DNA of 64,000 nt. Source: a virus. Taxonomy: Duplodnaviria > Caudoviricetes. Within the stretch, counting starts at the first letter, position 1. Every line of letters begins with the position of its first letter. The stretch is taken from positions 1-64,000 of the IMG/VR virus record IMGVR_UViG_3300032270_001445. One strand, given 5' to 3'. The notes beneath the pieces are model-generated. The model worked only from the letters and a program-made list of their open reading frames with translations. It made no database searches and had not been told where the DNA came from. Shown one piece after another: positions 25,201 through 57,636 of the stretch. Both the position numbers and the translations under genes were made by a program.

Positions 25201-26531
25201 GAACCGCGACAAATAGATCAACTGTTACCTATGGTATGACAGTTTCAGGTGGAACCGCAGGATCTCCTGTCACGCTTGTTCCAATTGGCACCATAGTTTC
25301 TGGTGCCAAAATAGACAATGGGAAGACTATTGTAATATCTGGATTGACTGCAGCGAATCAGGCTCTTGCCTCTGCTGGCGCTGGCGCTGATGCAAACAAC
25401 TACAGGACAATCAACTACACGCATCCGTCGTCTACCTCAACTCCATACTCGCTCGTTCAGCTCACAAGCTCGACCAACGCAGATGGCTATGGAAACGCAA
25501 CTACGGGCAAGACAATCAGGATTGCAGGCATTTCATCTGGGGATATTTCACCCCAAAGTGACACAAACGGTACGGTGGCAAACGGGAAGGTCATAAGATT
25601 TACTGGCGGAAGCGGAAATGTGGCATTTGCGCAGGTTACGCCTGCCGGATCAATCGAGACGAAGTCAGACACTAATGCCATACAGTCACCGAACTTTACC
25701 GTTGACTTTAATGGAAATGTTACTGCTTCAAGCATAGATATCACGGGTGGCGCATTTACCGGCGGTTCAATAGATCTTGGAAACGGAACGTTTACTGTTG
25801 ACAACAGTGGTTCCGTTTCAGCAAGCGACATATCTATTACTGATGGGTTCATAAACCTTGGCGGAGAGTTTGTTGCCTATACCACCGGAGAGGTTCAGGC
25901 CACAAACATGAACATTACCGGTGGCGGGATAAACATCGGGAGCGGAAAATTTGTCGTCAACGGATCGGGTGAAATGACCGCAGTTGGGCCAATTCTTGAT
26001 AATCTGGTAATTAACCCGGACGGAGAGCCAGCGCTTCTAGTTTCAGCAAACGCTGCCGAGGGGGACTTTGCGGTTCCTACCAACAATAGGATCGACCTTG
26101 GGCATTGGGCTGCGGGTAGTCCGGGGACGTTTACGCCAAGATTGAGAGTTAACAGCTCGGGAAACACGCAGGCAAGCGGGTCAATTACTGGAGGTCAAAC
26201 ACTAACCGCTTCGGATATTAACTACAAGCACAGCATAGAGGAGTACTCGATAGACCCTTCGTCAATCGATAAGATAAATTTGTATTCTTTTGAATGGAAC
26301 AATCAGAAGATCAAGGATGATGGTTACATTGGCGGGGGCGATGGCAGGGTTATTGGTGTTATCGCCCAGGAGATTGAAGAGCATCTACCAGTTGCGTTTT
26401 CTCCGGCAGACAGTGATTCAATGGCCACCGTAAGCACTCAGCACCTTATCTACGCACTGATCGAGACATCAAAAGACCTTAGGGCTAGGCTTGAGCGTGC
26501 AGAAAAGAAAATAGCAGAACTAGAAGGCTAG
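19278..26531 (+). CDS. tail tip/central fibre protein with CBM-like, FN3, repeated beta domains and C-terminal intramolecular chaperone (peptidase S74-like)
   Basis: Follows TMP; LVVNGLYDGNLDGW CBM-like start; PETPSSISVSANDKSVSLAW...YRYRVRAISTNGTFSGYS FN3; SDINYKHSIE...YSFEWN...GVIAQEIEE...LIETSKDL coiled-coil end. Confidence 0.8.
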   Translation: MATVRIFARLKYEGQAAAFYDISSRVDYENLTWESNSEGTSANSSIKLWTILPSSSSLVYDYTGATFADKVNAAIADESFIIEIPNKTEVIIFDTSTSPDTVLFSGVVTRVSTARQGGSVTQDIECADNTVMLEEHIIADYYAPRDSRDIDLISGSTNTTYTLIGQFPQIVGQVDGLSATSQSTGGSLSDGTYEIRIQAESSTIPGRDGNTPQLGPVTKPYTITLSAGTATQNIKVKWKSASKASGHNVYIIKTAGSGSETTSYLARSSKSLLSQIKITSASRSSNAVTIQTENPHGLSAGDPIVVTIPQTPGFSVSTEDAVVIESVPSSNKITYKNTGDNGSASTTNAFLTSGGVAYIKSYSSTGSPWELFYGSPRGYADGEMFKLDALTSTTASTETLVGNWFDEGYYRVGTGEDGIRGLLYPVSLFGGLFDKTWLTQIDLDVSSEIEPVDTQYRFSPYLPESDTANAEQFGGRTLRNALDYISEKTGAEYWIDRGQLDGAGAYSCKLHYRAKTPKELVVNGLYDGNLDGWTSSSGFTLQSSSSGPYGAGYSVMSSTASTAIETSAASRVTTSPGLKYFISVRGHVGAHQGRWGAHVDWYNTAGGVISSTSIGSLTGESVYAWERIWKIVEAPANAVNFGLRGSCTDQQSGSASFTDWSATQITGLMGYGDFEDSVSYSVPIYEMEVPTSPVESGASVNRLHLYAVFRTKDENGNKVALTDQSGNPVQYVDYDFVPGIWATNGKIVEAAITDERVETLEDAELSAEGFWKENGLPIESYTFEMRPSSANGTAYPVPEVGDVIPFLWTLLGVAKPLIVKAVQARMMGMDVVYTITVGGDIRLQRSAFIRLSEKIKELDQVNPIPPRPETPSSISVSANDKSVSLAWTFDQDVEVNKNLASFEVQRQDAIYKDISSVSRSGSTVTVNTSDSHGLVANDVVRIEIETIDETLLTLNGQWLVSQTYTNSFEYVCLESGTVEESEVDGLAYYAFNDFRTIQNTNATYVNDSGLIPALGYRYRVRAISTNGTFSGYSEATAPISPNTVSPELQDGSVSIEKLESSLRPLQIISGLNLPDIENIASLRSIYPEGMIVYHLGGTPPGLRKVAVGGTSWENAINTADIVLNSITSGLISSAGIDAGVIKSGKITIDSRWGATLGTTTAVYKHKSGTAATLWTGTTAGVAAGNLAIIAGVGAGFDGSRTISAIDVPTSRKVKNGTTGALSLENKHGISPGDLLTIAGVDASMNLTGVPVSHTDEWITHKTKWGSLSSLRSLQWHPFASGDLVTVLNSDVDANVTDVAISSISSAISLKAQGVPAAGGTDLSPTAGTDTYGTLVSTAPHSILPGDIVNVSNTSTMDGSSRVAYDYGSEIESFARVGNVATVRTKRYHGISAAESIKVSGLGVALNSGTTATRTNLEVIRTQSYTVSTATPAAPSVQAANISANTSGSVMTVSMPQASLAIGDLVAVTVGSDTATSITNGVAFVGSVSTNFAGSTTGTASLPVTAKGDVVLVYAASDGSLPSTSSAGWTELQSMTNGSHYAKLWAKTMGDTPDTSLAVTGISTASASIARAYRNCTVQTSAQQLASTGMPDSPSVSVSIENSAVVAFGSLDDDGISSSAPTGFANYLGIQSSLPGTTVVNVYSADSLVNPVGALNPAIWPGTGTDDNAAATVLLAPLSSWQRIATLPTDPGAAIFVYPVASLPVPDLVVSGFTALATAAVGMIFRPASGRTIAYTTPATTDSLTTNGDPNPPATTTPIANSMVVAAIAQDDTPQTYTAPAGYSNLRQASSGTGTSSVSVAMATKIVVGSGVSEDPGVFDGVTNETYGAFTFAVYDNSTEKRYGIISTAQPNGFIPGDFVEIAATSATYNGSRKVLSNQVSVTSYSVTSNVVTCVTDKPHGFINDDTVSVSGLGAPYDGFFLATSIATTGNPLTFSYSLTTANVASKPSSGTATNGKMFTVALASGANTSIVTTTGTATNRSTVTYGMTVSGGTAGSPVTLVPIGTIVSGAKIDNGKTIVISGLTAANQALASAGAGADANNYRTINYTHPSSTSTPYSLVQLTSSTNADGYGNATTGKTIRIAGISSGDISPQSDTNGTVANGKVIRFTGGSGNVAFAQVTPAGSIETKSDTNAIQSPNFTVDFNGNVTASSIDITGGAFTGGSIDLGNGTFTVDNSGSVSASDISITDGFINLGGEFVAYTTGEVQATNMNITGGGINIGSGKFVVNGSGEMTAVGPILDNLVINPDGEPALLVSANAAEGDFAVPTNNRIDLGHWAAGSPGTFTPRLRVNSSGNTQASGSITGGQTLTASDINYKHSIEEYSIDPSSIDKINLYSFEWNNQKIKDDGYIGGGDGRVIGVIAQEIEEHLPVAFSPADSDSMATVSTQHLIYALIETSKDLRARLERAEKKIAELEG

Positions 26532-32363: not shown

Positions 32364-34247
32364 CTACTCCTCGTCTTGCGCCTCAAGGACGCGCTGTACA
32401 TATGGGCTTAGCCACGGAGCAAACTCCGGTGACTTTACACGAACTTCCTGCGGACGGTCATAAGACTTTCTGCCGACCCCAAGAGCGCTGATGCGCTCAA
32501 TGAGTTCGAGCGCCTTCGAAAGATCCTCTTCGACCTTGGCCTTCGCCTCAGCAAGTTCGGTCACGCGCACAGAAATGGCAGCGACCTCCTCGTGAGCAGC
32601 ATTGGCTGCATCGAGAGCGGACTTTGCGATCGACTTGACTTCGTCAATAGACGAAACCTCGTCAGCCTCGACATTCTCCGCCGCCGGGGCCTCCTCAACG
32701 GGGGCCTCGACAACAACTTCCGCCTCTGCCGTTTCCGGCTGTACGGATGATTCATTTTCGCCGTCTGCAGACTTTTCAGCCTCGACTAGCGTGGCGCCAA
32801 GCGCCTCAAGGGCCTCAACCACAGGGTCCTTCTCGGACTCTTCGGCCTCGGCATCCTCTTCTACGTTAACGGCTGGCTCAGTATCCTCTGGGCTGGCTGA
32901 GGCCTTAACCTCTTCCTTCTCCTCGGCCTGATCAACTTCAGCAACTGGCTCCATTGCTGGGGCCTGCTGCCTCTCGTCTCCATCCGTGCTGACCGTAACG
33001 GTCACGCGAGTCTTCTTCTCTTCGATTTCCATTGAACTCTCCTGTTCATTCTTCTTGCTTGACGTAAATCCATTGGACACAACGCCGGAGGATGACGCCT
33101 CTTCCGTTGCTGTATCTTCGACGTCAATGCCACCAGCACCAGTATCAGTCTCGACTTCGGCGAGCGAAGATCGAATCTGCCATGACCATTTCTGGTGCAT
33201 GTCCTGGCGTTCAGCAAGGAAATTTGCAATCCCCTGCTGATTTTGTCTGGTAGCAACGTCAAATGCGGAGAGAATCCGCTTGATAAGGGCCTCGTTTGCG
33301 GAATAGACCGAAGAAGCCAAGCTTTCTGGGTCGTAGTCATCCGCAATTGGCTGTGGCGAGGACATGAGGGCAAGCTCTCTTATCTCTGCAGGGGCAGGGA
33401 CGTTAAGCTTTCTAATGTTCTCGGCGAGCGGATCTAGCGAGCCGTAGACATCCTCGTAGATCTCGCCAAAAAGCTCATGATACTGAGCAAAGGCTGGCCC
33501 AACAACGTTCCAATGCGCTCCGTGGGCCTTCACATAGAGGGCCGCAGAGTCGGCAAGCACGCCAGCAAGGGCTCCGGCAAGGGCAATGTTTTCCGGTGAC
33601 GTCTCGCCCTCAATCTCAAGAGACTTGATCGAATCAATAATCTCCCTGGCCTTTGCAAACTTATTGTTGATCTCTTCGTAGTCTTCACCAGACTCGATGC
33701 TGTCGAGGTTTACACCTGCAGCCTTGATGCTCTTAATTGCATTGTGCAAGTAGGATCTCTGGTTCGCCGGAATCCCTACAACGCTTGCCTCCATGAGGCG
33801 AACCTTCTCGATAACAATGGACTCAGGCTGGCTGTCCGTAGCCGCCTTGCGGCTTGCCTTCTCGACTCGTGCGCCAATGGATAGTCCGAGCTTGACGCCG
33901 CGCTTGATTGCGCGATATGCGCGAAGTGCCTCTGGGTTTTCGTCCTCGTTTACGACACGAATGTTGACGTCCAGGTCATAAACCTCTTGCCCAGTCTCGG
34001 AGTCAAATCGCTTGACAATCTGAGCGTCCATTGCGGATCCAAAAAGATCTTCTGGAACGTTGTAGTTGTGATTAAGAAACACAGTCATATTCTGTCTTGC
34101 CGTATCGGCCATTGACTTCAACGCGTTCAGGGACATCTCATCTCCGTGAAGGTCCCTGATCGTGGAGGAGGTGGTCCCAGTGACAAATCGCTCGCCACCC
34201 TCATTTTCGTAGGCCTTCAAGGCATTGGTGTAAATCTTGAATTCCAA
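32364..34247 (-). CDS. HK97-type prohead protease fused to a Dps/ferritin-like domain and acidic scaffold
   Basis: N-term RDLHGDEM...FLNHN...GLSIGA...LMEASVVGIPAN; central HWNVVGPAFAQYHELFGEIYE..DPLAE.IRKL; acidic tail and coiled coil; TTG start. Confidence 0.85.
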   Translation of the reverse strand: MEFKIYTNALKAYENEGGERFVTGTTSSTIRDLHGDEMSLNALKSMADTARQNMTVFLNHNYNVPEDLFGSAMDAQIVKRFDSETGQEVYDLDVNIRVVNEDENPEALRAYRAIKRGVKLGLSIGARVEKASRKAATDSQPESIVIEKVRLMEASVVGIPANQRSYLHNAIKSIKAAGVNLDSIESGEDYEEINNKFAKAREIIDSIKSLEIEGETSPENIALAGALAGVLADSAALYVKAHGAHWNVVGPAFAQYHELFGEIYEDVYGSLDPLAENIRKLNVPAPAEIRELALMSSPQPIADDYDPESLASSVYSANEALIKRILSAFDVATRQNQQGIANFLAERQDMHQKWSWQIRSSLAEVETDTGAGGIDVEDTATEEASSSGVVSNGFTSSKKNEQESSMEIEEKKTRVTVTVSTDGDERQQAPAMEPVAEVDQAEEKEEVKASASPEDTEPAVNVEEDAEAEESEKDPVVEALEALGATLVEAEKSADGENESSVQPETAEAEVVVEAPVEEAPAAENVEADEVSSIDEVKSIAKSALDAANAAHEEVAAISVRVTELAEAKAKVEEDLSKALELIERISALGVGRKSYDRPQEVRVKSPEFAPWLSPYVQRVLEAQDEE

Positions 34248-46783: not shown

Positions 46784-47015
46784 GCATTTCCGGGGCTTCT
46801 GCAACGCTCTCCGAGAGTGATTATCGAACCGCCAACCCCCACATTGTGAAAAAAAGGTAGGCGTCCCTAGCGCAGGTGGGGAGGGGGGGTCAAAGGGTAC
46901 ACGCGAGGGGTTAGACCCGCCCCTCCGGGGCTATCGGTCGTCCCAAGATGAGGCACGCTCTCGGCGTATTGTTCTTGTACGGGGGACTTCCCCGCGAAGT
47001 ACAGAGGAGGCAATC

Positions 47016-47309
47016 ATGGACACGATCGGTACAGCAATCAAGGCTCTCTTCGTGGGAGTCATCGCAGCCAATCTTCTCGCGTGGCAGCATCTCGTTCTTG
47101 GATTCGATAGCCGTTCTATTCAGATGGTGAACCCGATCGAGATCATCGTAGCGCTCCTCGCAGGAGTCACGGTGTTCCGAGCATTCTACGCATGGACGCA
47201 CGATACACTCTTCCCGGCGATGGACAGGGTATTCGAGAAGATCGACGCAATGCGAGAGAAGCGAAAGGCTCGCGTGACTTGCCCATGCGGCAGGCACCAC
47301 AGCGTCTAG
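47016..47309 (+). CDS. cassette gene: two-TM protein with C-terminal CPCGRHH
   Basis: GAGGAGG RBS; hydrophobic helices. Confidence 0.75.
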   Translation: MDTIGTAIKALFVGVIAANLLAWQHLVLGFDSRSIQMVNPIEIIVALLAGVTVFRAFYAWTHDTLFPAMDRVFEKIDAMREKRKARVTCPCGRHHSV

Positions 47310-47543
47310 CACAGCACCCCACTCACCGCGCGGCGGTGGGTGGGGTGTTCCAGTCCTCTTCTCTATCTCTCTCTGTTCGATCTCACACACACCTAAGATA
47401 ACTAACTAACACTAACTAACGTAACCTGACTAAGGTTCGATTCGGCGCTCCGCGCCTATCGGTGTCACCTGAACTATCTGTCGCTATGGGGCACTATGGA
47501 CTCACGGGGCAACCGCTCCGTAATAGTAGCAAGGGGGTACGCA

Positions 47544-47798
47544 ATGGTAGGAGCACTAGCAGGGTGGAGCACGCGACACGGCGTCGTGTCGCTCCACTAT
47601 GATATCCGAAACGGCGGCGGTTTCCCAGACACGCTGACGTTCGAGCTCGCACGAGTCAATGGCGAATTGGTCGCCAATATTCACAGCGGCGGCTATGCTG
47701 CTGCTAGTGATATCAACCTACGCGGTGCTGCTGCCGAGCAGCGCCTAGTAGACGCTGGTGTCTGGCTAGACTTCCCAGCGTATCTACGTCGAGCGTAG
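47544..47798 (+). CDS. cassette gene: hypothetical
   Basis: AAGGGGG RBS before ATG 47544. Confidence 0.7.
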   Translation: MVGALAGWSTRHGVVSLHYDIRNGGGFPDTLTFELARVNGELVANIHSGGYAAASDINLRGAAAEQRLVDAGVWLDFPAYLRRA

Positions 47799-48026
47799 TC
47801 AGCTCGCACGCTTCACCCCGCTCACCGCAATCGTGCGGTGGGCGGGGTGTTCGTTCTCTCATCTCTATCTCACTGCGTTCGATCTCGCCTGTCCCTAATA
47901 TAACTAACCGACTAACTAACGTTCGAGACGCCGCTCCGCGGCTATCGCTATCACCTGAACTACTCTGCTCTATTCCGTATTCTTTGTATGTGAGGCAACC
48001 GCTTCACAATAGTATGGAGGTCTGGT

Positions 48027-48314
48027 ATGTGGCATATCCCGGAGGAAGGGTGCAGACTCACGGTGAAGGGCGACGTCAATGACGTCATCACCGTGTCCTG
48101 CAATCTTGATGGTAAAGCAATGGATTATCATTGCGCCGTCACGCAGCGTGGTCTCTTGATGATGTTCGTCAAGGATCACGGTCATAGCACCGAGTACTAT
48201 GATGGTCGCAACGCTGTTGGGATTCTAAAGCAGGACCTAGTATGGGAAACGCTCCCAGACACGTTCCGCTCAATGGTCAATCTATCGGCGGCATCGCTGA
48301 CGAAGCGACGCTAG
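48027..48314 (+). CDS. cassette gene: hypothetical
   Basis: GGAGG RBS, fills unit between conserved modules. Confidence 0.75.
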   Translation: MWHIPEEGCRLTVKGDVNDVITVSCNLDGKAMDYHCAVTQRGLLMMFVKDHGHSTEYYDGRNAVGILKQDLVWETLPDTFRSMVNLSAASLTKRR

Positions 48315-48541
48315 TCCAGCCCCCCGCTCACCGCGAACGCGCGGTGGGCGGGGTGGTCAATCTCTACTCTCTATCTCACTCTGTTCGATCTCGGCAGTCC
48401 CTAATATAACTAACCGACTAACCATAAGGTTCGAGACGGCGCTCCGCGCCTATCGCCACCACAATGAATGAACTAGGCGATATGCGATTGTAGGTAGGCG
48501 ACGGACGCGTCGCGTAAGTAGTCATAGCAGAGGAGGTAAGT

Positions 48542-48829
48542 ATGAGTAAGCACTACGAGCCGCTTCGGTGGGAGGTGCGTATCGGCGCCGTCCTGAACGA
48601 AGCAGATAGCGATAGGGTATCGGACTGCATCGTCAGGATGCTGGAAGGTATCCGCAAGTCACGCCCTAGCACTTGGATGGAAGATATCCAAGGCGAGTAT
48701 GCATATACGCTGCTGAACGATGCACTTCGTCCAGCGGGGTATTGCACTACCGGACGCAACGAAGAGGACGCGTGGATGATCGGCAAGTTGCCGATGGATA
48801 GGTGGTCAGCGAACCTGCTGATCGTCTGA
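48542..48829 (+). CDS. cassette gene: hypothetical
   Basis: GAGGAGG RBS. Confidence 0.75.
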   Translation: MSKHYEPLRWEVRIGAVLNEADSDRVSDCIVRMLEGIRKSRPSTWMEDIQGEYAYTLLNDALRPAGYCTTGRNEEDAWMIGKLPMDRWSANLLIV

Positions 48830-49064
48830 TTCTACTTCCCCCAGTCGCGGACGCGCGGCTGGGGGAGTTAGGTTGTCTCTCTCTATCGAACTATGTTCGA
48901 TCTCGCAACTCCATAATATAACTAACCGACTAACCATAAGGTTCGAGACGGCGCTCCGCGCCTATCGGCACAACCTGAACTATCCCTCCCCATTGCGTAC
49001 TCTTCTTGTAGCGGGACGCCGCCGCGATGAATGCGACATCGCAATAGTATCAGCAGGAGGCTAT

Positions 49065-49325
49065 ATGAAGGGTAAAGAGCATCCGGCGTTGATGCCGTTT
49101 ATCGTCGTGGTCGCACGACTCGTTGAGTACTCTATCCCGATCGCTGCTGAGACAGCAGAAGCGGCGAAAGATATCGCCGAGAAGATGGTCATGGATGGTC
49201 ATGCTGATGACTACGCCCATGAGTGCGACATCCAAGAGGATGACGTTAAAGCGAGTGATCCTAGCGATGCGGAGCGCACCGCGTACAGGTTCTTGAACCG
49301 GGAGAACGACGAGCACACGTTCTAG
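49065..49325 (+). CDS. cassette gene: small acidic protein (DpnD/PcfM-like pattern)
   Basis: AGGAGG RBS; FIVVV...I.I.AET.EAA pattern. Confidence 0.7.
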   Translation: MKGKEHPALMPFIVVVARLVEYSIPIAAETAEAAKDIAEKMVMDGHADDYAHECDIQEDDVKASDPSDAERTAYRFLNRENDEHTF

Positions 49326-49569
49326 CAGGTAAATCACCCCCGCCGCAGCGGACGCGCTGCGGCGGGGGTGGTTAGATCACCTCTCTCTATAGAACTTCGT
49401 TCTATCTCGAGACGCCCTAATATAACTAACCACCTAACTAAGTTCGACTCGCCGCTCCGCGGCTATCGGTACAACCTGACTAAACTTCGCGGTGGGCGTA
49501 TTCTTCTTGTAGGGGGGACGCTCCCGCGATGAGTGCGACATCGCAATAGCAGTTAGCGAGGAGGCTATC

Positions 49570-49857
49570 GTGAAAATGGTAAAGACAATCGGCGACGCGA
49601 TCGCGCAGTTGCGCGTTCTAGTCTCCGAAGGCACGGCACTATACTCGGAGGCGGTCAGTATCGCTAGCCGATCAGATGTCCTGGTGGACCTATTATCAGG
49701 GAGCGACCGCGATGCGATGGTTGCTGCTCGCGATGGTGCGATAGATCGTGCGGCGCGGGTAGCGATTATCAATCGCGCCAACCAACACTCACTCGCTCAG
49801 TTAGAGGCTCAGGCAGCAGTCTACGGACTGGACTGGACTGGCTACCAGAGCCAGTAG
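49570..49857 (+). CDS. cassette gene: helical hypothetical
   Basis: GAGGAGG RBS, GTG start. Confidence 0.75.
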   Translation: MKMVKTIGDAIAQLRVLVSEGTALYSEAVSIASRSDVLVDLLSGSDRDAMVAARDGAIDRAARVAIINRANQHSLAQLEAQAAVYGLDWTGYQSQ

Positions 49858-50090
49858 TACCGACCACCCTCGTCGCAGCGGACGCGCTGCGGCGGGGGTG
49901 GTTAGATCATCTCTCTCTATAGAGAATGGTTCTATCTCGCCAGCCCATAAGATAACTAACCTAATAACTAACGTTCGATAGGCCGCTCCGCGTCCATCGC
50001 CACCACCCTGAATGAGTATCGCGTTGTGGCATTCTTCATATGCGGCGGACGCGCCGTATTGTTGTGGTAGTCATAGAGTAGGAGGCAGTT

Positions 50091-50342
50091 ATGAGTCAGT
50101 ACGGACTAAAGGCAATCGTTAAGGGTAAGGAGCGAAAGTTCATCTACGGATTCGATCGGGGTATTCCAGAATACTTCTTGACGGATATCACTGATGGTGA
50201 TGATCCGCAGTGCATCGTTGGCATGCTCGGAGGCGTGTACGGCGATAGGATGAACTTGCACGAGAAGATGAACGAACTCGGTCTATGGAAGATGCTCACT
50301 GACGATCAGCGCAGCAGAATCCTGATGGATCTTCCGTTCTGA
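50091..50342 (+). CDS. cassette gene: hypothetical
   Basis: AGGAGG RBS; YGFD motif. Confidence 0.75.
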   Translation: MSQYGLKAIVKGKERKFIYGFDRGIPEYFLTDITDGDDPQCIVGMLGGVYGDRMNLHEKMNELGLWKMLTDDQRSRILMDLPF

Positions 50343-50590
50343 ATTTATCACCCCTGCCACGGCGGACGCGCCGCGGCGGGGGTGGTTAGGTCGTTATTCT
50401 CTATAGAACTTTGTTCTATCCCGAAACTTCTCAGGATAACTAACTGAATAATAACCACTAACTAAGTTCGACTCGCCGCTCCGCGGCTATCGGCTGAACC
50501 TGACTAAACTTTGCGAACCGCCTACTCTTCTTGTAGCGGGACGCCGCCACACTATCGTTGATGGTGTGAATCGCGATAACAGGAGGCGAA

Positions 50591-50839
50591 ATGGAAGCGT
50601 TGATGAAACTATTCGCTATGGCATGGATAGCAGAGAAGCGTTCATGGGAAAATCTGGAAAGATACGAAAACTTTCTTCTTGATCTGGGCAGGGAGCCAAT
50701 GACGCACCCGTACTACAAAGGGCTTCTGGACCTTTGGAGTGAATCGCAAAAGGAGACCAAGAGGATCGGCAAGGAACTCCTCAAAGCGTACAGCGAAACG
50801 CAGGGCTCCGAATCGTTCTCGGTTCTCTCCGCGAAGTAG
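50591..50839 (+). CDS. cassette gene: hypothetical
   Basis: AGGAGG RBS. Confidence 0.75.
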   Translation: MEALMKLFAMAWIAEKRSWENLERYENFLLDLGREPMTHPYYKGLLDLWSESQKETKRIGKELLKAYSETQGSESFSVLSAK

Positions 50840-51083
50840 ACCACAACCCCTCATCGCAGCGGACGCGCTGCGGTGGGGGGTTGGTAGATCGCTTCTCTCT
50901 ATAGAACTTCGTTCTATCCCGAAGATCCATAAACTAACTAACTAACTAACTAACTAACCTGGTTCGACTCGACGCTCCGCGTCTATCGGCCTAACATTAC
51001 TAAACAACGCCGTACGCCTACTCTTCTTGTATCGGGACGCCGACGCGTAATGATTGATTGCGCGAATAGTTTAGCAGGAGGGC

Positions 51084-51341
51084 ATGATGACTCTTGAGAA
51101 TAGCGTGGTTGATGAGACCACGGAAGAGCAAGAAGATACGGGTAGGTTTTGTGCTTGGTGTAAGGTATCTGAGCAGGAGACGGACATTCGTCACTCGTGG
51201 GACGACCACGAGGGTAATGATGTCTCTTACTTTGAGAAGAAGACAATCCTAGACCTTTGTAGGGAATGTTTTTACGAGGGTCACGTAGAGTCTGTTATTG
51301 ACGACATCAAGAAGATTTACGCAGACCTAGCGAAGGGCTGA
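51084..51341 (+). CDS. cassette gene: acidic zinc-finger protein
   Basis: AGGAGG RBS; CAWC...CREC. Confidence 0.75.
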   Translation: MMTLENSVVDETTEEQEDTGRFCAWCKVSEQETDIRHSWDDHEGNDVSYFEKKTILDLCRECFYEGHVESVIDDIKKIYADLAKG

Positions 51342-51568
51342 GAGACCACCACCGTCAACCGCGGACGCGCGGTTGGCGGTGGCGGTTAGTTCGTCTCTCT
51401 CTATAGAACTTCGTTCTATCCCGCAGATCCCTAAGATAACTAACTAACCTCATAACCATAACGTTCTGCCGGTCGCTCCGCGCCCTTCGGCACAACCTAA
51501 ACTACCTGAGCGATACCGCGATTATGTATGTGCGGGGAACACCTCGCGTAATAGTAAGGAGGTATGAA

Positions 51569-51850
51569 ATGGGAAAGCGGCTAAATCGTAATGGGGTCAT
51601 TGCGGCGATCGCTCGCCTAGATGATTTCACATCGCATACAAAGAGTATGCGTGGCGAGTGGCAGGGAGAGATCTACGTGGTGTATTCGTACAACCAGTGG
51701 ATTGGTCAGACGGACGGCACGCATTGGAATCTAAACGATCAGCGATACAGCGTGACGACATCCCGCCACCAGTCATATCTACGCCGTGCAATCAGCGCGC
51801 ACGCAATCAACACTCAAGAGAGGGAGATCGGTAAGCTGCTCTCCAGGTAG
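51569..51850 (+). CDS. cassette gene: hypothetical
   Basis: AAGGAGG RBS; YVVYSY...YSVTTSRHQS. Confidence 0.75.
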   Translation: MGKRLNRNGVIAAIARLDDFTSHTKSMRGEWQGEIYVVYSYNQWIGQTDGTHWNLNDQRYSVTTSRHQSYLRRAISAHAINTQEREIGKLLSR

Positions 51851-52069
51851 TCAATCCACCCGAGCCGCGAAGTCCTGCGGCTCGGGTGGTTAGGTCTCTT
51901 CTCTCTATCTCTCTTTGTTCGATCTCGAGACGCCATAAGATAACTAACTAACTGAGTTCGACTCGACGCTCCGCGTCTATCGGCCTAACATTACTAAACC
52001 AACCATCAAGCGTATTGTTCTTGTAGCGGCGGACGCGCCGCACAATCCAATAGTAGTAGAGGAGGCTTT

Positions 52070-52372
52070 ATGGGAGAGAAAGTAAAGCGCGTGAAGCGCA
52101 AAGCAACGGAGTCGCTTGGAGTGATCACGAAACTCCTCGCGCGCTCCATTGAGCAGCGTGCAGCAGCGGTTGACGCTGTTGATTTCACGCAAGAGCAGAT
52201 TGCGATAGTCGCAAGAGCAGAGAAGCCCAGCAAGAGCGTCGTCAAGAAACTGAACGCTGCGCTTGTTGTTGCCAATAGTGCTCTCGCGTACTATGAAGCA
52301 AACGTCAAGGAACTTCAGAAGCGTCAGGCTTCTGCTATGAAGGCGATTGAGAAGGCTCAAGCGCAAGAGTAG
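52070..52372 (+). CDS. cassette gene: basic coiled-coil protein
   Basis: GAGGAGG RBS. Confidence 0.75.
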   Translation: MGEKVKRVKRKATESLGVITKLLARSIEQRAAAVDAVDFTQEQIAIVARAEKPSKSVVKKLNAALVVANSALAYYEANVKELQKRQASAMKAIEKAQAQE

Positions 52373-52595
52373 TATCCCCACCCTCATCGCAGCGGACGCG
52401 CTGCGGTGGGGGTGGTTAGATCACCTCTCTCTATAGAACTTCGTTCTATCCCGGACCGCCTTAATATAACTAACCACCTAACTAACCAGCGTTCGATTAC
52501 TCGCTCCGCTCGTATCGCAACAACCTAAACTGACCTGACCTAAAGCCTATTCTTTGTATGTGAGGCAACCGCCTCACAATAGTAAGGGGGCTAAA

Positions 52596-52880
52596 ATGGC
52601 AGTGAAGCAAGTGCCAGAGAAGGTAGTCAGGGACATTGTTGAGTTCCAGAGTATCCTTGAAGGATTCATCGCGGCACTCAACAAAGGTAGATACTTCGAT
52701 CACGATAGCCAACAGGCTGTTAGTGATGTGCTGTACCTTATGGAGAAGCCTTGGAAGTATAAGTTTGAGATGGCTGAGTGGGAGGTTCTTGGATACCCCG
52801 ACGCTTACAATCCAGACTATGTTAGCGATCTAGAAATTGACACCACCGACGCAAAGATCTTTTCTTACTTCAGCCGCTAA
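52596..52880 (+). CDS. cassette gene: hypothetical
   Basis: AAGGGGG RBS; YLMEKPWKY. Confidence 0.7.
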   Translation: MAVKQVPEKVVRDIVEFQSILEGFIAALNKGRYFDHDSQQAVSDVLYLMEKPWKYKFEMAEWEVLGYPDAYNPDYVSDLEIDTTDAKIFSYFSR

Positions 52881-53089
52881 CGATTCCCCCCGCTCACCGC
52901 GAACGCGCGGTGGGCGGGGTGGTCAATCTCTACTCTCTATAGAACAAAGTTCTATCCCGCAGATCCCTAAGATAACTAACTAACGTTCCATAGCTCGCTC
53001 CGCTCGCTTCGGCAGAACTCTAACAAACTAACAGGAACGCGTATTCTTTAGGTGCGGGGCAACAGCCACGCAATAGTAAGGAGGCTAGT

Positions 53090-53329
53090 ATGTCAATAAA
53101 GGAGTTCAGGGTAACGGCAACATACGAGACCACTGTTGAAGTGGATCAAGATTACGAGTGGCAGGTGTGCGACAAGCACAAGCCAGCCGACGATGAGACA
53201 CCTGCTCAGTGGGATGTTCGCATGGTAGCGATTGAATCGTGCAGCGATTGCGACGATAAGGCTTACGATGTCGCTTCTGAAGAGGCTTACGGAAAGTTTC
53301 CAAACGCCGACGACATTGACATCTCCTAG
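53090..53329 (+). CDS. cassette gene: acidic protein with Cys pairs
   Basis: AAGGAGG RBS; FRVTATYETTVEV. Confidence 0.75.
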   Translation: MSIKEFRVTATYETTVEVDQDYEWQVCDKHKPADDETPAQWDVRMVAIESCSDCDDKAYDVASEEAYGKFPNADDIDIS

Positions 53330-53553
53330 TCGCTAAGGAGAACCCCCGCTCACCGCAATCGTGCGGTGGGCGGGGTGTTCGTTTCCTTCCCTCTATAGAA
53401 CTTCGTTCTATCCCGCAACTCCTTAATCTAACTAACCACCTAACTAACGTTCGCACGCTCGCTCCGCTCGCTTCGGCCGAACTCTAACAAACTAACGCGT
53501 AGGCGTATTCTTTGGGTGCGGGGATTCCCGTGAAGATCATAAGGAGGCTTGAA

Positions 53554-53757
53554 ATGGTTGCGTGCGATCAGTGCGGCACGGAGTTCTTCAACGAGTTTGA
53601 GCCGCTCTCAACGATCTGCGAATCGTGCAAGGAAGAAGAATCCGCAGCGGCGGACGCGTATTGGGAGAAGTATCTTGATTGGGTTGATGATACCCATCAT
53701 CGCGATAGCGATGACGATACTGACCCGCTTATTCAATACGAAGACGGCTGGCGATAA
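53554..53757 (+). CDS. cassette gene: very acidic zinc-finger peptide
   Basis: AAGGAGG RBS; CDQC...CESC, D/E-rich tail. Confidence 0.75.
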   Translation: MVACDQCGTEFFNEFEPLSTICESCKEEESAAADAYWEKYLDWVDDTHHRDSDDDTDPLIQYEDGWR

Positions 53758-53761
53758 ACGA

Positions 53762-53803
53762 TAAAGCCCCAGATTCCCACGAGGGAGTCTGGGGCTTTAT
53801 TAT
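53762..53803. terminator. bidirectional terminator at junction of the two arrays
   Basis: TAAAGCCCCAGATTCCC-ACGA-GGGAGTCTGGGGCTTTA with A/T tracts on both sides. Confidence 0.8.
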
Positions 53804-53869
53804 TGAGTTCCAGTCCTAGCAGCCGCGGCTGCTAGGAGCCTAACGATAATAGCCCCTAGCAGCCGAGGA

Positions 53870-54148
53870 TTATGCGGAGTAGTAATCCAACTCCATCTTC
53901 TCCACGAAGTTATCGTCAACTTCAATCTCGCTATATTCCACAACGAAGCCTTCCCGCGCCATTGCGGTTATGAACAATGGTGCGTCACAATCTTCTTCAA
54001 GGTAGACGCTTCCGTTGCCTTCGTATGAGCAGTTGCTCACAACGCTGGCGATACCGAGTTGGCGAAGCATAGCCTTCTCCGCTACGAGGTAGCCGTGCCC
54101 TGGCGTATTGAACTTCCGCGTGAAGTAGGTTGCCGAGATTCCGAACAT
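53870..54148 (-). CDS. cassette gene: hypothetical (PGHGYL...YLEEDCD family)
   Basis: AAGGAGG RBS; motif seen in small phage/plasmid proteins. Confidence 0.75.
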   Translation of the reverse strand: MFGISATYFTRKFNTPGHGYLVAEKAMLRQLGIASVVSNCSYEGNGSVYLEEDCDAPLFITAMAREGFVVEYSEIEVDDNFVEKMELDYYSA

Positions 54149-54276
54149 TGGTGCCTCCTTGCTTCCCTACGGCAACTGCCGCAACGCAATACTACGCGAA
54201 CTTCTGGCAGGTTGTCAAGCGTTCCATCCTAAGCCACCGCGGTGGCTTAGGGCTGAACCCTAAACCACCGCGCTCG

Positions 54277-54606
54277 CTACGCGTTCGCGTTCTCTGTCTG
54301 TTGTCGCTCGTTCTCTATTGCTTCGTCGGTGTAGTGCTTCGCGATCTCCCGCCAATCAACGCGCGAGAGTGAGGCGCCGAGCAAATCGGTCACGAGCCCA
54401 ACCGCCGCCTCTGGTAGCGTGTTGGTCACTTCCTCCTTGAGCCACTTGCCCATTTCATAGGCTGCGAAGTTTCCGTCGCTGTCGTTGCTTTCTGCGAACG
54501 CACGAGCCTGCTCCTCTACTCCGTGGAGGTCTCCGATGATCCCCTCACCGAGCCAGAGATTGACGAGCCATGTCTCGTAGTTGCTCCAGCCGTTGTAGTC
54601 TGCCAT
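54277..54606 (-). CDS. cassette gene: YNGWSNYETW-family hypothetical
   Basis: AAGGAGG RBS, ATG 54606. Confidence 0.8.
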   Translation of the reverse strand: MADYNGWSNYETWLVNLWLGEGIIGDLHGVEEQARAFAESNDSDGNFAAYEMGKWLKEEVTNTLPEAAVGLVTDLLGASLSRVDWREIAKHYTDEAIENERQQTENANA

Positions 54607-54764
54607 TTTTGCCTCCTTATGACCTAGCGGGAAGCCCCGCAAGGGAATACTAAACGAACTCCTAGCGAACTGTCAAGCGTTCTATTCCAATGTGCCGCGG
54701 CACATTGGAGCCTAACAATAAACCCCGCCGAAGCGGGGCTTATTGTTTCCGCAGCTGCGAAACT

Positions 54765-55172
54765 TTACGCCATCGGATAGTTGCCCAGTTCTAGAAGCGT
54801 CTTGATTTCCGCAACCTGCTCATCGCTGAACGCAAGCGTCTTGCCGTCCTCGTCCTCTGCGGTGAGTACGCAGTTGCCGTAGATTCCGTCAAACACGCCG
54901 CCAAGAATCTCATTGCGCAAAGATGTTGCCGCCTGATTGCGAATCACAGGCTCGTTGTATAGCCCTTCCTCGTCGCACCAAAGCACCACGCTCGTCGCGC
55001 CGTACTTACCAGAAGCCGCAACCTCTACCAGGCTCCACTCGCCGACTCGGTAGAGTTCGGTGAGCGTGTTGCCGTCATCGTTGAAGTCCACGACCTCAAC
55101 CCAGTTGAACAGCGCGGGGACTGGCGTAGCAGTCTCAAACTTTCCAACTCCGAACTTGATTGCCTTACCCAT
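54765..55172 (-). CDS. cassette gene: DUF3846-like protein
   Basis: LWCDEEGL...N..AT...I.GN.VL motif; AAAGGAGG RBS. Confidence 0.7.
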   Translation of the reverse strand: MGKAIKFGVGKFETATPVPALFNWVEVVDFNDDGNTLTELYRVGEWSLVEVAASGKYGATSVVLWCDEEGLYNEPVIRNQAATSLRNEILGGVFDGIYGNCVLTAEDEDGKTLAFSDEQVAEIKTLLELGNYPMA

Positions 55173-55287
55173 TTGCTTGCCTCCTTTGCCTTTCATCGGG
55201 AAGCCCCGACCTCTGAATCTTACGCGATAAAGTTCCAGCCTGTCAAGGGGTTCTATCTCAAATGGTCGCGACCATTTGAGGCTGAAC

Positions 55288-55529
55288 AAAATGATAAGGG
55301 TCTGACTGGCACCACACCAACCAGACCCTTATCGGCATTTCGCTGCCTTTGACGCTTATCCTCTTGCGAGGAGAGGCTTCACCTTCCGGCTGCCTCTTGC
55401 GAACGGCGTAGGTGTCGGTTAGGCACCCCCACCGCTCGTCCTTATCGTCTCGGGTAGTTAGTCTACAACTACCAACCAGCCGCAGCCCCATAAGCCCGCC
55501 ACTTTCACAGCGGCACCAGAGCGGCTCGT
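55288..55529 (-). ncRNA. candidate structured non-coding RNA cassette A
   Basis: TTGACG-17-TAGAAT promoter (55564-55536), terminator 55293-55333, no RBS-led ORF, several hairpins, motif shared with 57637-57866. Confidence 0.6.
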
Positions 55530-55615
55530 GTGATGATTCTAAACGAACATCTGCCAGCCGTCAAGCGTTCTATCCCAAATGGCCGCGGCCATTTGGGGCT
55601 GAACAATAATAAGAG

Positions 55616-55828
55616 TTATACGCCGCTTCTTACTGCCTCGTCTAGTCTTGTCGCCGCTTCCGTAATCGTCGCCAGAACTTCGTCGCCAAAGATTTCCGCG
55701 AAGCCCGTAGGCTCGGCGGTATGGTCTGCCGCAAGTTTCTGGAACCGATAGGCTCCGTCATCTTGCTGGTAATAGCGTGCGAAGGTTGTCGTTGCGCCGT
55801 TGGTGTGAATCTGCTTCCACTCCGTCAT
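55616..55828 (-). CDS. cassette gene: hypothetical
   Basis: GGAGGG RBS, translationally coupled to 55830 gene. Confidence 0.65.
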   Translation of the reverse strand: MTEWKQIHTNGATTTFARYYQQDDGAYRFQKLAADHTAEPTGFAEIFGDEVLATITEAATRLDEAVRSGV

Positions 55829-55829
55829 C

Positions 55830-56114
55830 TTATCCCTCCACTTCATACTTCTCGCCGCCGATTCGCAGCCCTGTGATTGCGTCAAGCGCGATGGTGCGAT
55901 AGCCCTCGGCGGTAATGTCGTAGACAAAGATGAGGTCTTTCGCAGCCGCGTCATACGCAGCCTCGCCGCCTTTGAGGTGCTTCTTGACCCCAAGACGCGC
56001 CGTCATCTTTCGCAACTCGCCTGTCGTGCGCTTCACGAAGTCCACGCCAAAGATCGCGCCGTTGCTTGTGCGGATCATCTCTGCCGCCTCTGCCATCTTG
56101 ATTACCTTGTTCAT
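55830..56114 (-). CDS. cassette gene: SH3/Sm-like beta-barrel protein
   Basis: IFGVDFVKRTTGELRKM.ARLGV...VYDI...YRTI pattern; AAGGAGG RBS. Confidence 0.7.
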   Translation of the reverse strand: MNKVIKMAEAAEMIRTSNGAIFGVDFVKRTTGELRKMTARLGVKKHLKGGEAAYDAAAKDLIFVYDITAEGYRTIALDAITGLRIGGEKYEVEG

Positions 56115-56262
56115 TTAAGCCTCCTTACTTCTGTACCTTTCTGGTACAAGATGATTCTAGAACAGACCTATCCAATCCGTCAAGGGGTTCTAGTCCAAAG
56201 GGCCGCCGCCCTTTGGAGGCGAACAAAAATACCGCCCGAAGGCGGCATCTTTGCTTTCTGGA

Positions 56263-56601
56263 CTACTCGGCTGTCTGAAGCGCGATGATCTTGCTGAACT
56301 CCAGTTCAGCGTCGCGCTCGTGCTCAAACGCAACGAAGTCAATGAATCCATCGTTTCGCCAATGGACAACGATGTTGCCGAACTTGTCGTAAGTCCCATC
56401 AAGTTCAGTTGAAATGAAATCGTCTGGGACTGCCAGTCCGTCCATCACATCGCCGTAGATTTCAGCAAACTTCAGATCGTAGCCTTCAAGACGACTCGCA
56501 ACCCTTTGCTCAACAAGCCAGTCGCCATCGCAACTTCCCTGAGAGCACTTGAACTTCGTGAAGTCGCCGTTCGTGAGTGAAACCGCCAGAGCCTTGAACA
56601 T
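56263..56601 (-). CDS. cassette gene: acidic hypothetical
   Basis: GAGGAGG RBS. Confidence 0.75.
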   Translation of the reverse strand: MFKALAVSLTNGDFTKFKCSQGSCDGDWLVEQRVASRLEGYDLKFAEIYGDVMDGLAVPDDFISTELDGTYDKFGNIVVHWRNDGFIDFVAFEHERDAELEFSKIIALQTAE

Positions 56602-56791
56602 TTTAGCCTCCTCTGTTATCCGCCCAGTTGGGCTATGCCCATTGTAATCAGTAATCTACTCAGCCGTCAAGAGGTTCTATTCCGAGGAGCCGCCGCTCCT
56701 CGGAGACGAACATAATAAAGCGGACTAGTTGGGCTGCGACTCAACTAGTCCGCTTGTAGTGGATAGGTGGAGGCTTTCTACCTATCCGTAG

Positions 56792-57064
56792 TCATAGTGC
56801 CGCCAAGTACGGCAGGCGGCAGTCGTATCCTAGCAGGCAACTTGATGGCTCGTGATGGACAGGCTCAACCGCCCACTCAAGGCAAGTCCCGCAAGACTCG
56901 CCGCACCAGTTCACTTCGTCCCAGTCAAAGACAGGGTGAAGTGGATTGCCTTCGCTATCAACAGATTCCTCGTCGTTCAGAGCCGTTCCCCACCTTGCCT
57001 CGGAGCAGGGTACGCAATGAACAGCAGCCTCGTATTGCCACGCGATCGGTGTGTGCTCGCTCAT
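56792..57064 (-). CDS. cassette gene: Cys-rich acidic protein
   Basis: AAGGAGG RBS; HCVPC...CGTC. Confidence 0.75.
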   Translation of the reverse strand: MSEHTPIAWQYEAAVHCVPCSEARWGTALNDEESVDSEGNPLHPVFDWDEVNWCGESCGTCLEWAVEPVHHEPSSCLLGYDCRLPYLAAL

Positions 57065-57183
57065 CTTTGCCTCCTTGTTTCGTCAGAAGTCCTGACTAAG
57101 GGATTGTCGCACAGCCGCAACAGCCTGTCAAATGGTTCCATCGTAGGTAGCCGCCGCTACCTACGCCCGAACATAATAAACTG

Positions 57184-57258
57184 CTATGGGCGGGTAAGCA
57201 CCAGCGCGTAAAGCATAAGCGCGCCGAGCATTATGTAGAACGCTCCCTGCGCGTCCAT
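57184..57258 (-). CDS. 24-aa hydrophobic peptide
   Basis: Read manually: MDAQGAFYIMLGALMLYALVLTRP; TAATG overlap with upstream gene. Confidence 0.5.
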   Translation of the reverse strand: MDAQGAFYIMLGALMLYALVLTRP

Positions 57259-57521
57259 TAGATCAAATCCGAAAGCGTTGGGACTGCCTCGTAGCAATCG
57301 TCGCAAAGATACTCAATGTTCTCGTGGGCGTTCTCGTAGCCGTTCCAGCCGTAAGGGAAAGAACGCTTCTTGCCCTCAAATGGGCAACGCTTCTCCAATG
57401 AGAGAAACTCCTCGCCGTGGCACTCCTGAACGAGCGGGTGGTCGTGCGTTTCGCACTCGCATTGATCGTAGTAGCAATCGCCGTTGCCACACATCGTCAT
57501 TGAGCCTTGTAGGTACGCCAT
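57258..57521 (-). CDS. cassette gene: Cys/His-rich protein
   Basis: AAGGAGG RBS, ATG 57521. Confidence 0.75.
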   Translation of the reverse strand: MAYLQGSMTMCGNGDCYYDQCECETHDHPLVQECHGEEFLSLEKRCPFEGKKRSFPYGWNGYENAHENIEYLCDDCYEAVPTLSDLI

Positions 57522-57636
57522 TGTCGCCTCCTTATTCGCAGCCCCAAATCGGGGTAGCCCCATTGTAAATCCATCGCGCCAGATTCGTCAAGCGTTCTAA
57601 TCCAAGGAGCGGCGGCTCCTTGGAGCTGAACCTAAT

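Follow-up and report, generated by a model that had tools for sequence, protein, structure and literature searches.

The 64,000-nucleotide window considered here comprises bases 1-64000 of IMGVR_UViG_3300032270_001445, an 85,238-bp IMG/VR record of a tailed phage (Caudoviricetes) that has direct terminal repeats and is rated complete. At 46910-53805 it carries an array of 14 plus-strand genes of 67-100 amino acids (aa), with a coding span of 47016-53757, and the genes share a frame of about 220 bp. The array is probably a hyperplastic accessory region of 14 autonomous one-gene transcription units that would be read by a sigma70-type RNA polymerase of the host. Monocistronic output, with its start sites and ends, is predicted. 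The frame, its rigid spacing, the hairpin covariation, the RNA-level and DNA-level signatures, the payload turnover and the breakpoints inside the frame were read directly from the sequence.

Pattern and protein scans identified two complete relatives, IMGVR_UViG_3300016263_001265 (84,616 bp, 70-82% DNA identity), which is the nearest, and IMGVR_UViG_3300032245_001466 (82,937 bp), together with a 33-kb viral contig and 11 metagenome fragments with 2-6 copies of the hairpin box described below. A search via the flanking 266-aa protein returned the same two complete genomes and no further relatives. No DNA match, near or distant, was found among 50,697 records of cultured phages. The multi-copy box pattern is confined to this phage lineage; 596 Gb of bacterial genomes gave single matches only, which is the chance expectation for GC-rich DNA.

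Fourteen small genes in a common frame

All 14 box starts listed by the first-pass annotation are real, as judged with a repeat finder and by direct reading. A MAFFT alignment of the 13 complete intergenic modules has 59% mean column identity, and its blocks stand in the order that had been described. Spacers between the genes are 209-248 bp long. Of the 6.85 kb, about 3.75 kb is coding, which leaves about 45% of the array non-coding, in agreement with the earlier estimate of nearly half. The 14 genes had also been called mutually unrelated, and BLASTP (E<1e-3) indeed finds no similarity among them within the genome; paralogues of two payload families are present in relatives. Starts corrected with GGAGG as a guide place gene 2 at 47544 (not 47496) and genes 5, 10, 12 and 14 at 49065, 51569, 52596 and 53554. 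The payloads are real genes under purifying selection, with ratios of nonsynonymous to synonymous substitution (dN/dS) of 0.13-0.60 for eight orthologue pairs shared with the nearest relative. A Pfam search of the payloads gave nothing above the cutoff, and one payload matches a PHROG of unknown function. Their role is probably host takeover or counter-defence.

The comparison of promoter modules covered 74 copies in this phage and related sequences, drawn from metagenome fragments and at least four distinct viral records. They align across 80 nt with a single gap of 1 nt. Invariant in all of them are the GTT of GTTCGA; C-TCC-G, which forms the closing pair and loop of a hairpin; C29, four bases past the stem; and C37, within an ACCTAAA/ACCTGA motif. 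The -10 hexamer, nAnTnT, lies 38 nt past the hairpin core, and its A62 (position 2) and T66 (position 6) are invariant as well. An A at position 2 and a T at position 6 define the -10 of the sigma70 family. TG stands one base 5' of the hexamer in 44 of the 74 modules and never alongside a -35 match of at least 4/6; the five modules with the -35-like CTGACT all lack TG. This mutual exclusion is the trade-off expected of genuine extended -10 promoters and suggests a sigma70-type promoter, although the common descent of the modules makes it supportive and not a statistical test. A sigma54 reading of TGGCAT...GC was rejected on visual inspection, as its spacing is two off.

In most of the 14 folded leaders a 5' RNA stem-loop begins 3-4 nt into a segment cut from 4 nt past the -10, and the stem-loop is predicted to start at +1. 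It is followed by AAUAG, then GGAGG, then the open reading frame (ORF).

The hairpin upstream of the -10

The 34-bp box at the head of each promoter module holds a covarying 5-bp hairpin with the loop TCC. Its stem is 94% paired across the 74 modules; there are 47 compensatory cells and seven different stems, and G-U pairs are absent. The covariation score was reached by none of 500 shuffles, and slid controls collapse. Since the hairpin has no wobble pairs, unlike the terminators and leaders, it is read as a structure at the DNA level. A count over both strands of the 85-kb genome gave nine perfect 5-bp/TCC hairpins against 0.65 expected, which rules out chance, and all nine are on the plus strand inside the array. 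The last three boxes (52491-53482) form a distinct class, CTCGC-TCC-GCTCG, with outer GTTC..GAAC pairing. This class II box also precedes the last cassette, of the gene-14 family, in relatives.

The minus strand carries a further array of single-gene units at 53807-63605, each unit having a promoter, then a 5' hairpin and AAGGAGG. The promoters of these units (genes in 53.8-64 kb) have the consensus TTGACR-N17/18-TAnnAT, and 5' of each is a 38-bp GTTC...GAAC palindrome whose arms vary between copies with complementarity kept. Sixteen such palindromes lie between 53.7 and 67 kb. In 10 of 12 cases the palindrome is centred 42.5-46.5 nt before the -10; the two remaining centres, at 56.5 and 57.5 nt before it, are about one helical turn beyond most others. 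The hairpin centre of the plus array lies 42 nt before its -10. Thus both arrays place a structured DNA element near -55, helically phased with a host-type promoter, and this is the main reason why the plus-array hairpin is read as a putative upstream element of a promoter for host polymerase.

Several points weigh against this reading. The plus-array promoter is weak when judged by the E. coli consensus: a promoter scan found none in the plus array and nine in the minus-strand array. It may require an activator or a different polymerase. A simple operator model leaves the covariation of the hairpin unexplained, because a protein that binds duplex DNA needs no complementary arms. The 74 modules share descent, and counts across them are not independent.

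The hairpin box resembles the early promoters of the N4 virion RNA polymerase. On the non-template strand of the N4 genome these promoters read GTTGC-TTC-GCAAC-TTAT-GG, GAAGC-TCC-GCTTC-TTTT-GG and GCTGC-TCC-GCAGC-TTTT-GG, and the sequence of a P2 promoter oligonucleotide has been published (PMC13492108). Their 5-bp stem carries a GGA loop with a sheared G:A pair, and they have a 4-nt ruler and a start on CC (PMC4496689, PMC13492108, PMC13037366), with a GCGGAGC mini-hairpin on the template strand (PMC13037366) and outer stem bases that vary while pairing is retained (PMC4496689). The template strand of the hairpin box reads 5'-CC-GATA-GnCGC-GGA-GCGnC. The box, GnCGC-TCC-GCGnC-TAWC-R, thereby shares with N4 the 5-bp stem, the GGA loop, the GCGGAGC mini-hairpin, the 4-nt spacer and the covarying outer stem bases, and the general N4-type geometry (a stem of 5-7 bp, a 3-nt G-N-A loop, structure kept as the outer stem varies) is present. 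N4-type transcription starts 11-12 nt past the loop centre, and a purine occupies the equivalent position in 74 of 74 modules, with an invariant C just before it; the hairpin is oriented correctly for the array genes; and the perfect 5-bp hairpins, found in nine of the 14 boxes, are absent from the rest of the genome. The box itself might then be a single-stranded hairpin promoter of the N4 type, read by a hairpin-specific polymerase (T7-like or novel) that is carried or is encoded unrecognisably; the 14 cassettes would be its regulon, and the downstream -10 a second promoter or part of the leader. We consider this unlikely. Neither a T7-like polymerase (PF00940), as a giant virion protein or a heterodimer, nor Sigma70_r2 was found in the genome; N4 mini-vRNAP and gp16 had no match in six frames; and the two-barrel DxDGD metal motif occurs nowhere in the genome. 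The giant ORF at 8796-19277 was tried as an N4-like virion polymerase and rejected: it encodes a helical tape-measure protein of 3493 aa with a TMP_3 domain, a profile of 14 homologues matches only helical PDB proteins and no RNA polymerase, and no polymerase motif occurs in the correct order. The 2417-aa and 757-aa ORFs are fibre-like. The N4 polymerase contacts -11G and -8G. In the boxes here the centre of the loop never varies, and position -8, where N4 requires G, is G in 64 and C in 10 of 74. A sigma70-type -10 follows the hairpin at a fixed distance here, unlike in N4, and in the minus-strand array the equivalent position before the -10 is taken by long palindromes without a 3-nt loop, ahead of consensus sigma70 promoters. 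The copy number also differs: the 14 copies here compare with three in N4, and LUZ7 has nine early start sites (PMC9163698).

It is a puzzle why a phage in which no N4-type polymerase was detected should have an N4-type mini-hairpin joined, with constant spacing, to a sigma70-type -10. We suggest tentatively, and with more doubt than conviction, that the mini-hairpin and the long palindromes of the minus-strand array are a new kind of promoter element: supercoil-extruded DNA near -55, helically phased with the core promoter, that would gate a whole set of cassettes. Its putative reader would be host polymerase with a phage factor or an unrecognised hairpin-specific polymerase.

The 3' module and cassette exchange

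A terminator hairpin of 14-19 bp (-31 to -45 kcal/mol, z-scores -4 to -7) follows every stop codon. Of the 264 pairs in the terminators, 25 are G-U, and in 14 of 14 the plus-sense RNA is stabler than its complement; both features point to RNA structures in the sense of the genes. The spacer 3' of the terminator is 56-85 nt long, C-rich and poor in G (9.7%, against 26.8% in the genome; 13 spacers, 47350-53448, plus strand). It contains a second box unit, GTTCGA-N13-TAAnATAAC, and then one to six TAAC units. The box reported earlier, in the form GTTC(G/T)ATC-N11-TAAnATAAC, is in 13 of 13 complete modules, and (TAAC)n is as variable as had been stated, its copy number of 1-6 differing between modules and between relatives.

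The G-depleted, C-rich composition of the spacer is that of Rho-loading sites or unstructured RNA. A palindrome, ATAGAAC-N3-GTTCTAT, is perfect in seven modules, and one module has ATCGAAC-N3-GTTCGAT, a compensatory change (49389-53411); more distant relatives keep the right arm only. Three or more TAAC units amount to a plus-strand stop in all three frames, and three or more GTTA units do likewise (TAG) on the minus strand (47399-53448). A tRNA-like T-loop reading of GTTCGA was rejected, as the flanking stem is absent and Rfam gave sub-threshold chance matches only. So was a LexA reading (Cheo-type TCGAAC-N4-GTTCGA), since the spacer is 3 nt and not 4 and the left arm is lacking in most relatives.

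The second box could also be an extra promoter that uses a phage activator instead of a -35, like the MotA-dependent middle promoters of T4, so that each gene would get a long-leader transcript later in infection. T4 middle promoters have an activator box centred near -30 and a -10, a geometry that GTTCGA-N13-TAAnAT resembles. In 62 distinct modules GTTCGA keeps a constant distance from the TAnnnT-type hexamer, in which A, A and T each reach at least 90%, and a GTTCTATC half-site also abuts the -35 of minus-strand promoters. The second box has neither a -35 nor a TG extension, however; in most comparisons it goes with the cassette before it, as part of that cassette's 3' end; it is absent from the first cassette, which still has a hairpin box and -10; the variable (TAAC)n shows no spacing constraint toward the gene; and surroundings with 9.7% G fit an unstructured Rho-loading or insulating spacer equally well. 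We regard an extra promoter here as quite unlikely.

The array lies between genes that are conserved across all three complete genomes, and within it these genomes and the 12 fragments keep the frame and vary the gene set and order. This bears out the proposal of payloads swapped on a retained chassis. By family, the payload order is 1-14 in this genome; 1,3,5',2,5,15,4,8,7,9,8',10,11,13 in IMGVR_UViG_3300016263_001265; and 1,2,16,4,15,5,8,17,18,19,17',14 in IMGVR_UViG_3300032245_001466. Static tandem duplication, with an identical gene set and order in relatives, is ruled out, as the orders are permuted and the sets differ. BLASTP clustering gives 19 payload families across the three complete genomes, 5 of them in all three. 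The twelve further fragments add families and new neighbourhoods; with these included, automatic calls form 37 groups, a few of which are miscalled frames.

The first-pass annotation suggested testing for payload exchange at fixed boundaries. Exchange is found, but breakpoints vary within the frame. Between L087 and L109, non-homologous ORFs lie between flanks that are 98% and 82% identical, and both breakpoints fall in the stretch from the -35 region to the -10. When this genome is compared with its nearest relative, the switch in homology often lies close to (TAAC)n. The hairpin box, promoter and leader then move with the downstream gene, and the terminator and second box with the upstream gene, but only 6 of 11 orthologues retain their own promoter module and only 6 of 11 their own terminator. 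After gene 11, the terminators already diverge despite orthologues that are 93% identical. Variable breakpoints in shared sequence, together with the lack of a detected integrase or Y1 transposase, fit general homologous recombination and not a site-specific enzyme.

Structure-specific single-strand recombination at the hairpins, like that at integron attC sites or in IS200/IS605 elements, would instead move cassettes at fixed points, with (TAAC)n as crossover or target. The array does have the look of a sedentary integron, with small same-sense ORFans about 500 bp apart, structured repeats between them that are more conserved in structure than in sequence, and rapid turnover of content; in several cassettes, homology with the closest relative changes near (TAAC)n, and TAAC copy number is variable. 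The enzymes were not found. A tyrosine recombinase of the IntI type (PF00589) is absent from the complete genome, for a search whose positive control matched in 14 of 14 genomes, and the Y1 HUH transposase (PF01797) is absent too. Integron cassettes are mostly promoterless and have RYYYAAC/GTTRRRY cores; here the box begins GTTCGA and not GTTRRRY, no attC cores are present, and every cassette has its own -10, leader and terminator. With breakpoints that are not fixed, both the integron and the IS200/IS605 model were rejected as explanations, and recombination of this kind seems very improbable.

The following scheme is inferred, and so are the identity of the polymerase, the positions and timing of transcription starts, and what the hairpin and the payloads do. 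A host sigma70-type RNA polymerase would initiate at the -10, nAnTnT, aided by the -35-like CTGACT in this genome or by the TG extension in relatives. The 34-bp upstream box would act at a rigid distance, its core a DNA-level 5-bp hairpin or mini-cruciform centred near -54. The mRNA would start at the base of the 5' stem-loop, which probably stabilises it, and AAUAG and a strong GGAGG would lead to a 67-100-aa ORFan. A very stable RNA hairpin would end the transcript, and the G-poor unstructured spacer (GTTCGA box, TAAnATAAC and variable (TAAC)n) would isolate the next unit. The 14 direct repeats of the frame would serve as portable homology. General recombination between frames, within a genome or between co-infecting relatives, could then delete, insert, replace or reorder single cassettes, and an incoming ORF would arrive with its promoter, leader, ribosome site and terminator.

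For the features that can be read from sequence, the earlier analogy to the promoter-early stem-loops (PeSLs) of T4-like phages holds. General homologous recombination has been shown for these elements (Arbiol et al. 2010, PMC2839356; Comeau et al. 2014, PMC4122927). Both systems have a repeated terminator-plus-promoter motif that flanks ORFans in a hyperplastic region (PMC2839356, PMC4122927), with indels, replacements and reshuffling between close relatives, variable crossovers inside the motif and no dedicated recombinase. The composite motif of PeSLs, a terminator-capable stem-loop and then a sigma70-like promoter, is present here; 14 tandem copies flank payloads without a Pfam family; and breakpoints lie inside the motif in L087 versus L109 and in this genome versus IMGVR_UViG_3300016263_001265. 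The phage is not a T4-like myovirus: it belongs to an unrelated 85-kb lineage with a giant tape-measure protein, no T4 core genes were seen in it, and its portal protein is 21-26% identical to its nearest cultured homologues (Bacillus, Lactobacillus, Mycobacterium and Arthrobacter phages). Its frame is about four times longer than a PeSL, is strictly ordered and includes a leader and ribosome site, the 14 units form an uninterrupted tandem array, and the promoter is sub-consensus, weaker than the consensus promoters of T4-type PeSLs, and tied at a fixed distance to a covarying DNA hairpin. The array thus appears to function like a PeSL region in a more elaborate form, and not to be one by descent. 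With it, PeSL-style cassette shuffling is no longer limited to T4-like phages but includes an unrelated, uncultured freshwater lineage. The frame, with promoter, leader, ribosome site, terminator and spacer, resembles a synthetic expression vector; in so clean a form the rules of natural cassette exchange are easily read from metagenomes, and the small ORFan families that are evidently traded, about 40 in number and under purifying selection, are candidates for host-takeover or counter-defence functions.

The likeness that had been drawn to the SPO1 host-takeover module is loose only. Small early genes of mostly unknown function with many promoters and terminators are found there too, but most units of SPO1 are operons of several genes; they lie in the terminal redundancy and lack a common frame. 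Cluster O mycobacteriophages have a 17-bp palindrome, TGTTCGG-N3-CCGAACA, of unknown function (PMC4351075). It shares with the palindrome of the present array a 7-bp GTTC/GAAC inverted repeat that flanks 3 bp and recurs in tens of copies, most of them intergenic, and the phages share a long tail, a displaced terminase gene and glycosyltransferases. In Cluster O, however, the arms are sequence-invariant, whereas here their order is reversed (ATAGAAC-N3-GTTCTAT), the left arm is often missing and the element belongs to a larger frame.

Individual units and the surrounding genome

The following features are all on the plus strand. Promoter modules have one 5' stem-loop and GGAGG unless stated otherwise. 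Module 1 (46910-47015) has the hairpin box GTTAGA..GCCCC-TCC-GGGGC-TATC-GG (46910-46943), the -10 TATTGT (46967-46972) and no GTTCKATC box upstream. The boxes of the next modules are GGCGC-TCC-GCGCC in module 2 (47435-47543; -10 CACTAT 47492-47497; AATAG; GGGGG in place of GGAGG), GCCGC-TCC-GCGGC in module 3 (47921-48026; -10 TATTCT 47978-47983; AATAG), GGCGC-TCC-GCGCC in module 4 (48429-48541; TG-extended -10 GATTGT 48486-48491) and again in module 5 (48941-49064; -10 TACTCT 48998-49003; two 5' stem-loops; AATAG), and GCCGC-TCC-GCGGC in module 6 (49442-49569; CTGACT; -10 TATTCT 49499-49504; 5' stem-loops; AATAG). Module 7 (49973-50090; TG-extended -10 CATTCT 50030-50035) has GCCGC-TCC-GCGTC, with 4/5 pairs; module 8 (50466-50590; CTGACT; -10 TACTCT 50523-50528; 5' stem-loops) has GCCGC-TCC-GCGGC; module 9 (50962-51083; -10 TACTCT 51019-51024; 5' stem-loops; AATAG) has GACGC-TCC-GCGTC; module 10 (51463-51568; -10 GATTAT 51520-51525; AATAG) has GTCGC-TCC-GCGCC, also with 4/5 pairs; and module 11 (51956-52069; -10 TATTGT 52013-52018; AATAG) has GACGC-TCC-GCGTC. 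Class II boxes with the -10 TATTCT are present in module 12 (52491-52595; CTCGC-TCC-GCTCG, mini-hairpin GC-TCC-GC only; -10 at 52548-52553; AATAG; GGGGG), module 13 (52985-53089; flanks GTTC..GAAC; -10 at 53042-53047; AATAG) and module 14 (53449-53553; GTTCG..CGAAC; -10 at 53506-53511).

Payload gene 1 (47016-47309; 97 aa) is hydrophobic, has a dN/dS of 0.44 and belongs to a family common to all three complete genomes. Orthologues of gene 2 (47544-47798; 84 aa) and gene 4 (48542-48829; 95 aa) are at slots 4 and 7 of IMGVR_UViG_3300016263_001265, the latter with its own promoter and terminator kept; between them in this genome is gene 3 (48027-48314; 95 aa). The family of gene 5 (49065-49325; 86 aa) is in all three genomes and is duplicated in one, and gene 6 (49570-49857; 95 aa, GTG start) is unique to this genome. 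Gene 7 (50091-50342; 83 aa) has an 83% identical orthologue in the nearest relative, there after family 8 and not before it. Gene 8 (50591-50839; 82 aa) represents the commonest family, with 12 copies in 15 arrays, and its neighbour differs in most arrays that hold it. Gene 9 (51084-51341; 85 aa) is Cys-rich. Gene 10 (51569-51850; 93 aa) is the match to phrog_32689; distant homologues with 33-41% identity occur in Streptomyces phages BillNye and Muntaha at record positions 800-1500, near one end, and in two places per record, which may reflect a terminal repeat. Gene 11 (52070-52372; 100 aa) has the 93% identical orthologue after which the terminator differs; gene 12 (52596-52880; 94 aa) is in five fragments and not in the two complete relatives; gene 13 (53090-53329; 79 aa) is acidic, with Cys pairs; and gene 14 (53554-53757; 67 aa), with CxxC..CxxC, is the last cassette in five arrays.

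Each 3' module runs from a terminator to (TAAC)n. A GTTCGATC box is found in module 1 (47310-47434; terminator to about 47349) at 47375 in the G-poor spacer, followed by TAAGATAAC; in module 2 (47799-47920; terminator to about 47856) at 47877; in module 3 (48315-48428; to about 48357) at 48383; in module 4 (48830-48940; to about 48872) at 48895, within the palindrome ATCGAAC-TAT-GTTCGAT; and in module 10 (51851-51955; to about 51889) at 51917. Module 6 (49858-49972; to about 49903) has GTTCTATC at 49929. The palindrome lies at 49389-49405 in module 5 (49326-49441; terminator to about 49382, -45 kcal/mol) as ATAGAAC-TTC-GTTCTAT; at 50403-50419 in module 7 (50343-50465; to about 50386) as ATAGAAC-TTT-GTTCTAT; at 50901-50917 in module 8 (50840-50961; to about 50883), which has six TAAC units; at 51403-51419 in module 9 (51342-51462; to about 51387); at 52433-52449 in module 11 (52373-52490; to about 52421); at 52939-52955 in module 12 (52881-52984; to about 52928) as ATAGAAC-AAA-GTTCTAT; and at 53395-53411 in module 13 (53330-53448; to about 53388). 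Between the plus array and the minus-strand array is a convergent terminator hairpin (53758-53805; no strand assigned; -35 kcal/mol) with a T-run on the plus strand and an A-run before it. Beyond the window, at 66334-66400 and outside both arrays, two tandem GTTCTATCCCAC-N-CAATAAC units adjoin a candidate tRNA gene, judged by eye.

The genome also encodes an SU10-type capsid protein, a portal, a terminase, a replication initiator, a DnaC-like loader and nucleases. The 2417-aa fibre has an S74 chaperone domain and directly follows the 3493-aa protein, the pair spanning 8796-26531; together, the tape-measure-domain protein and the adjoining fibre imply a predicted tail of extreme length. Homologues of the 3493-aa protein on other metagenome contigs are 3474-3772 aa long. 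In a 627-aa protein encoded on the minus strand (32364-34247), a prohead serine protease domain (residues 103-173) is joined to a ferritin-like domain (226-365).

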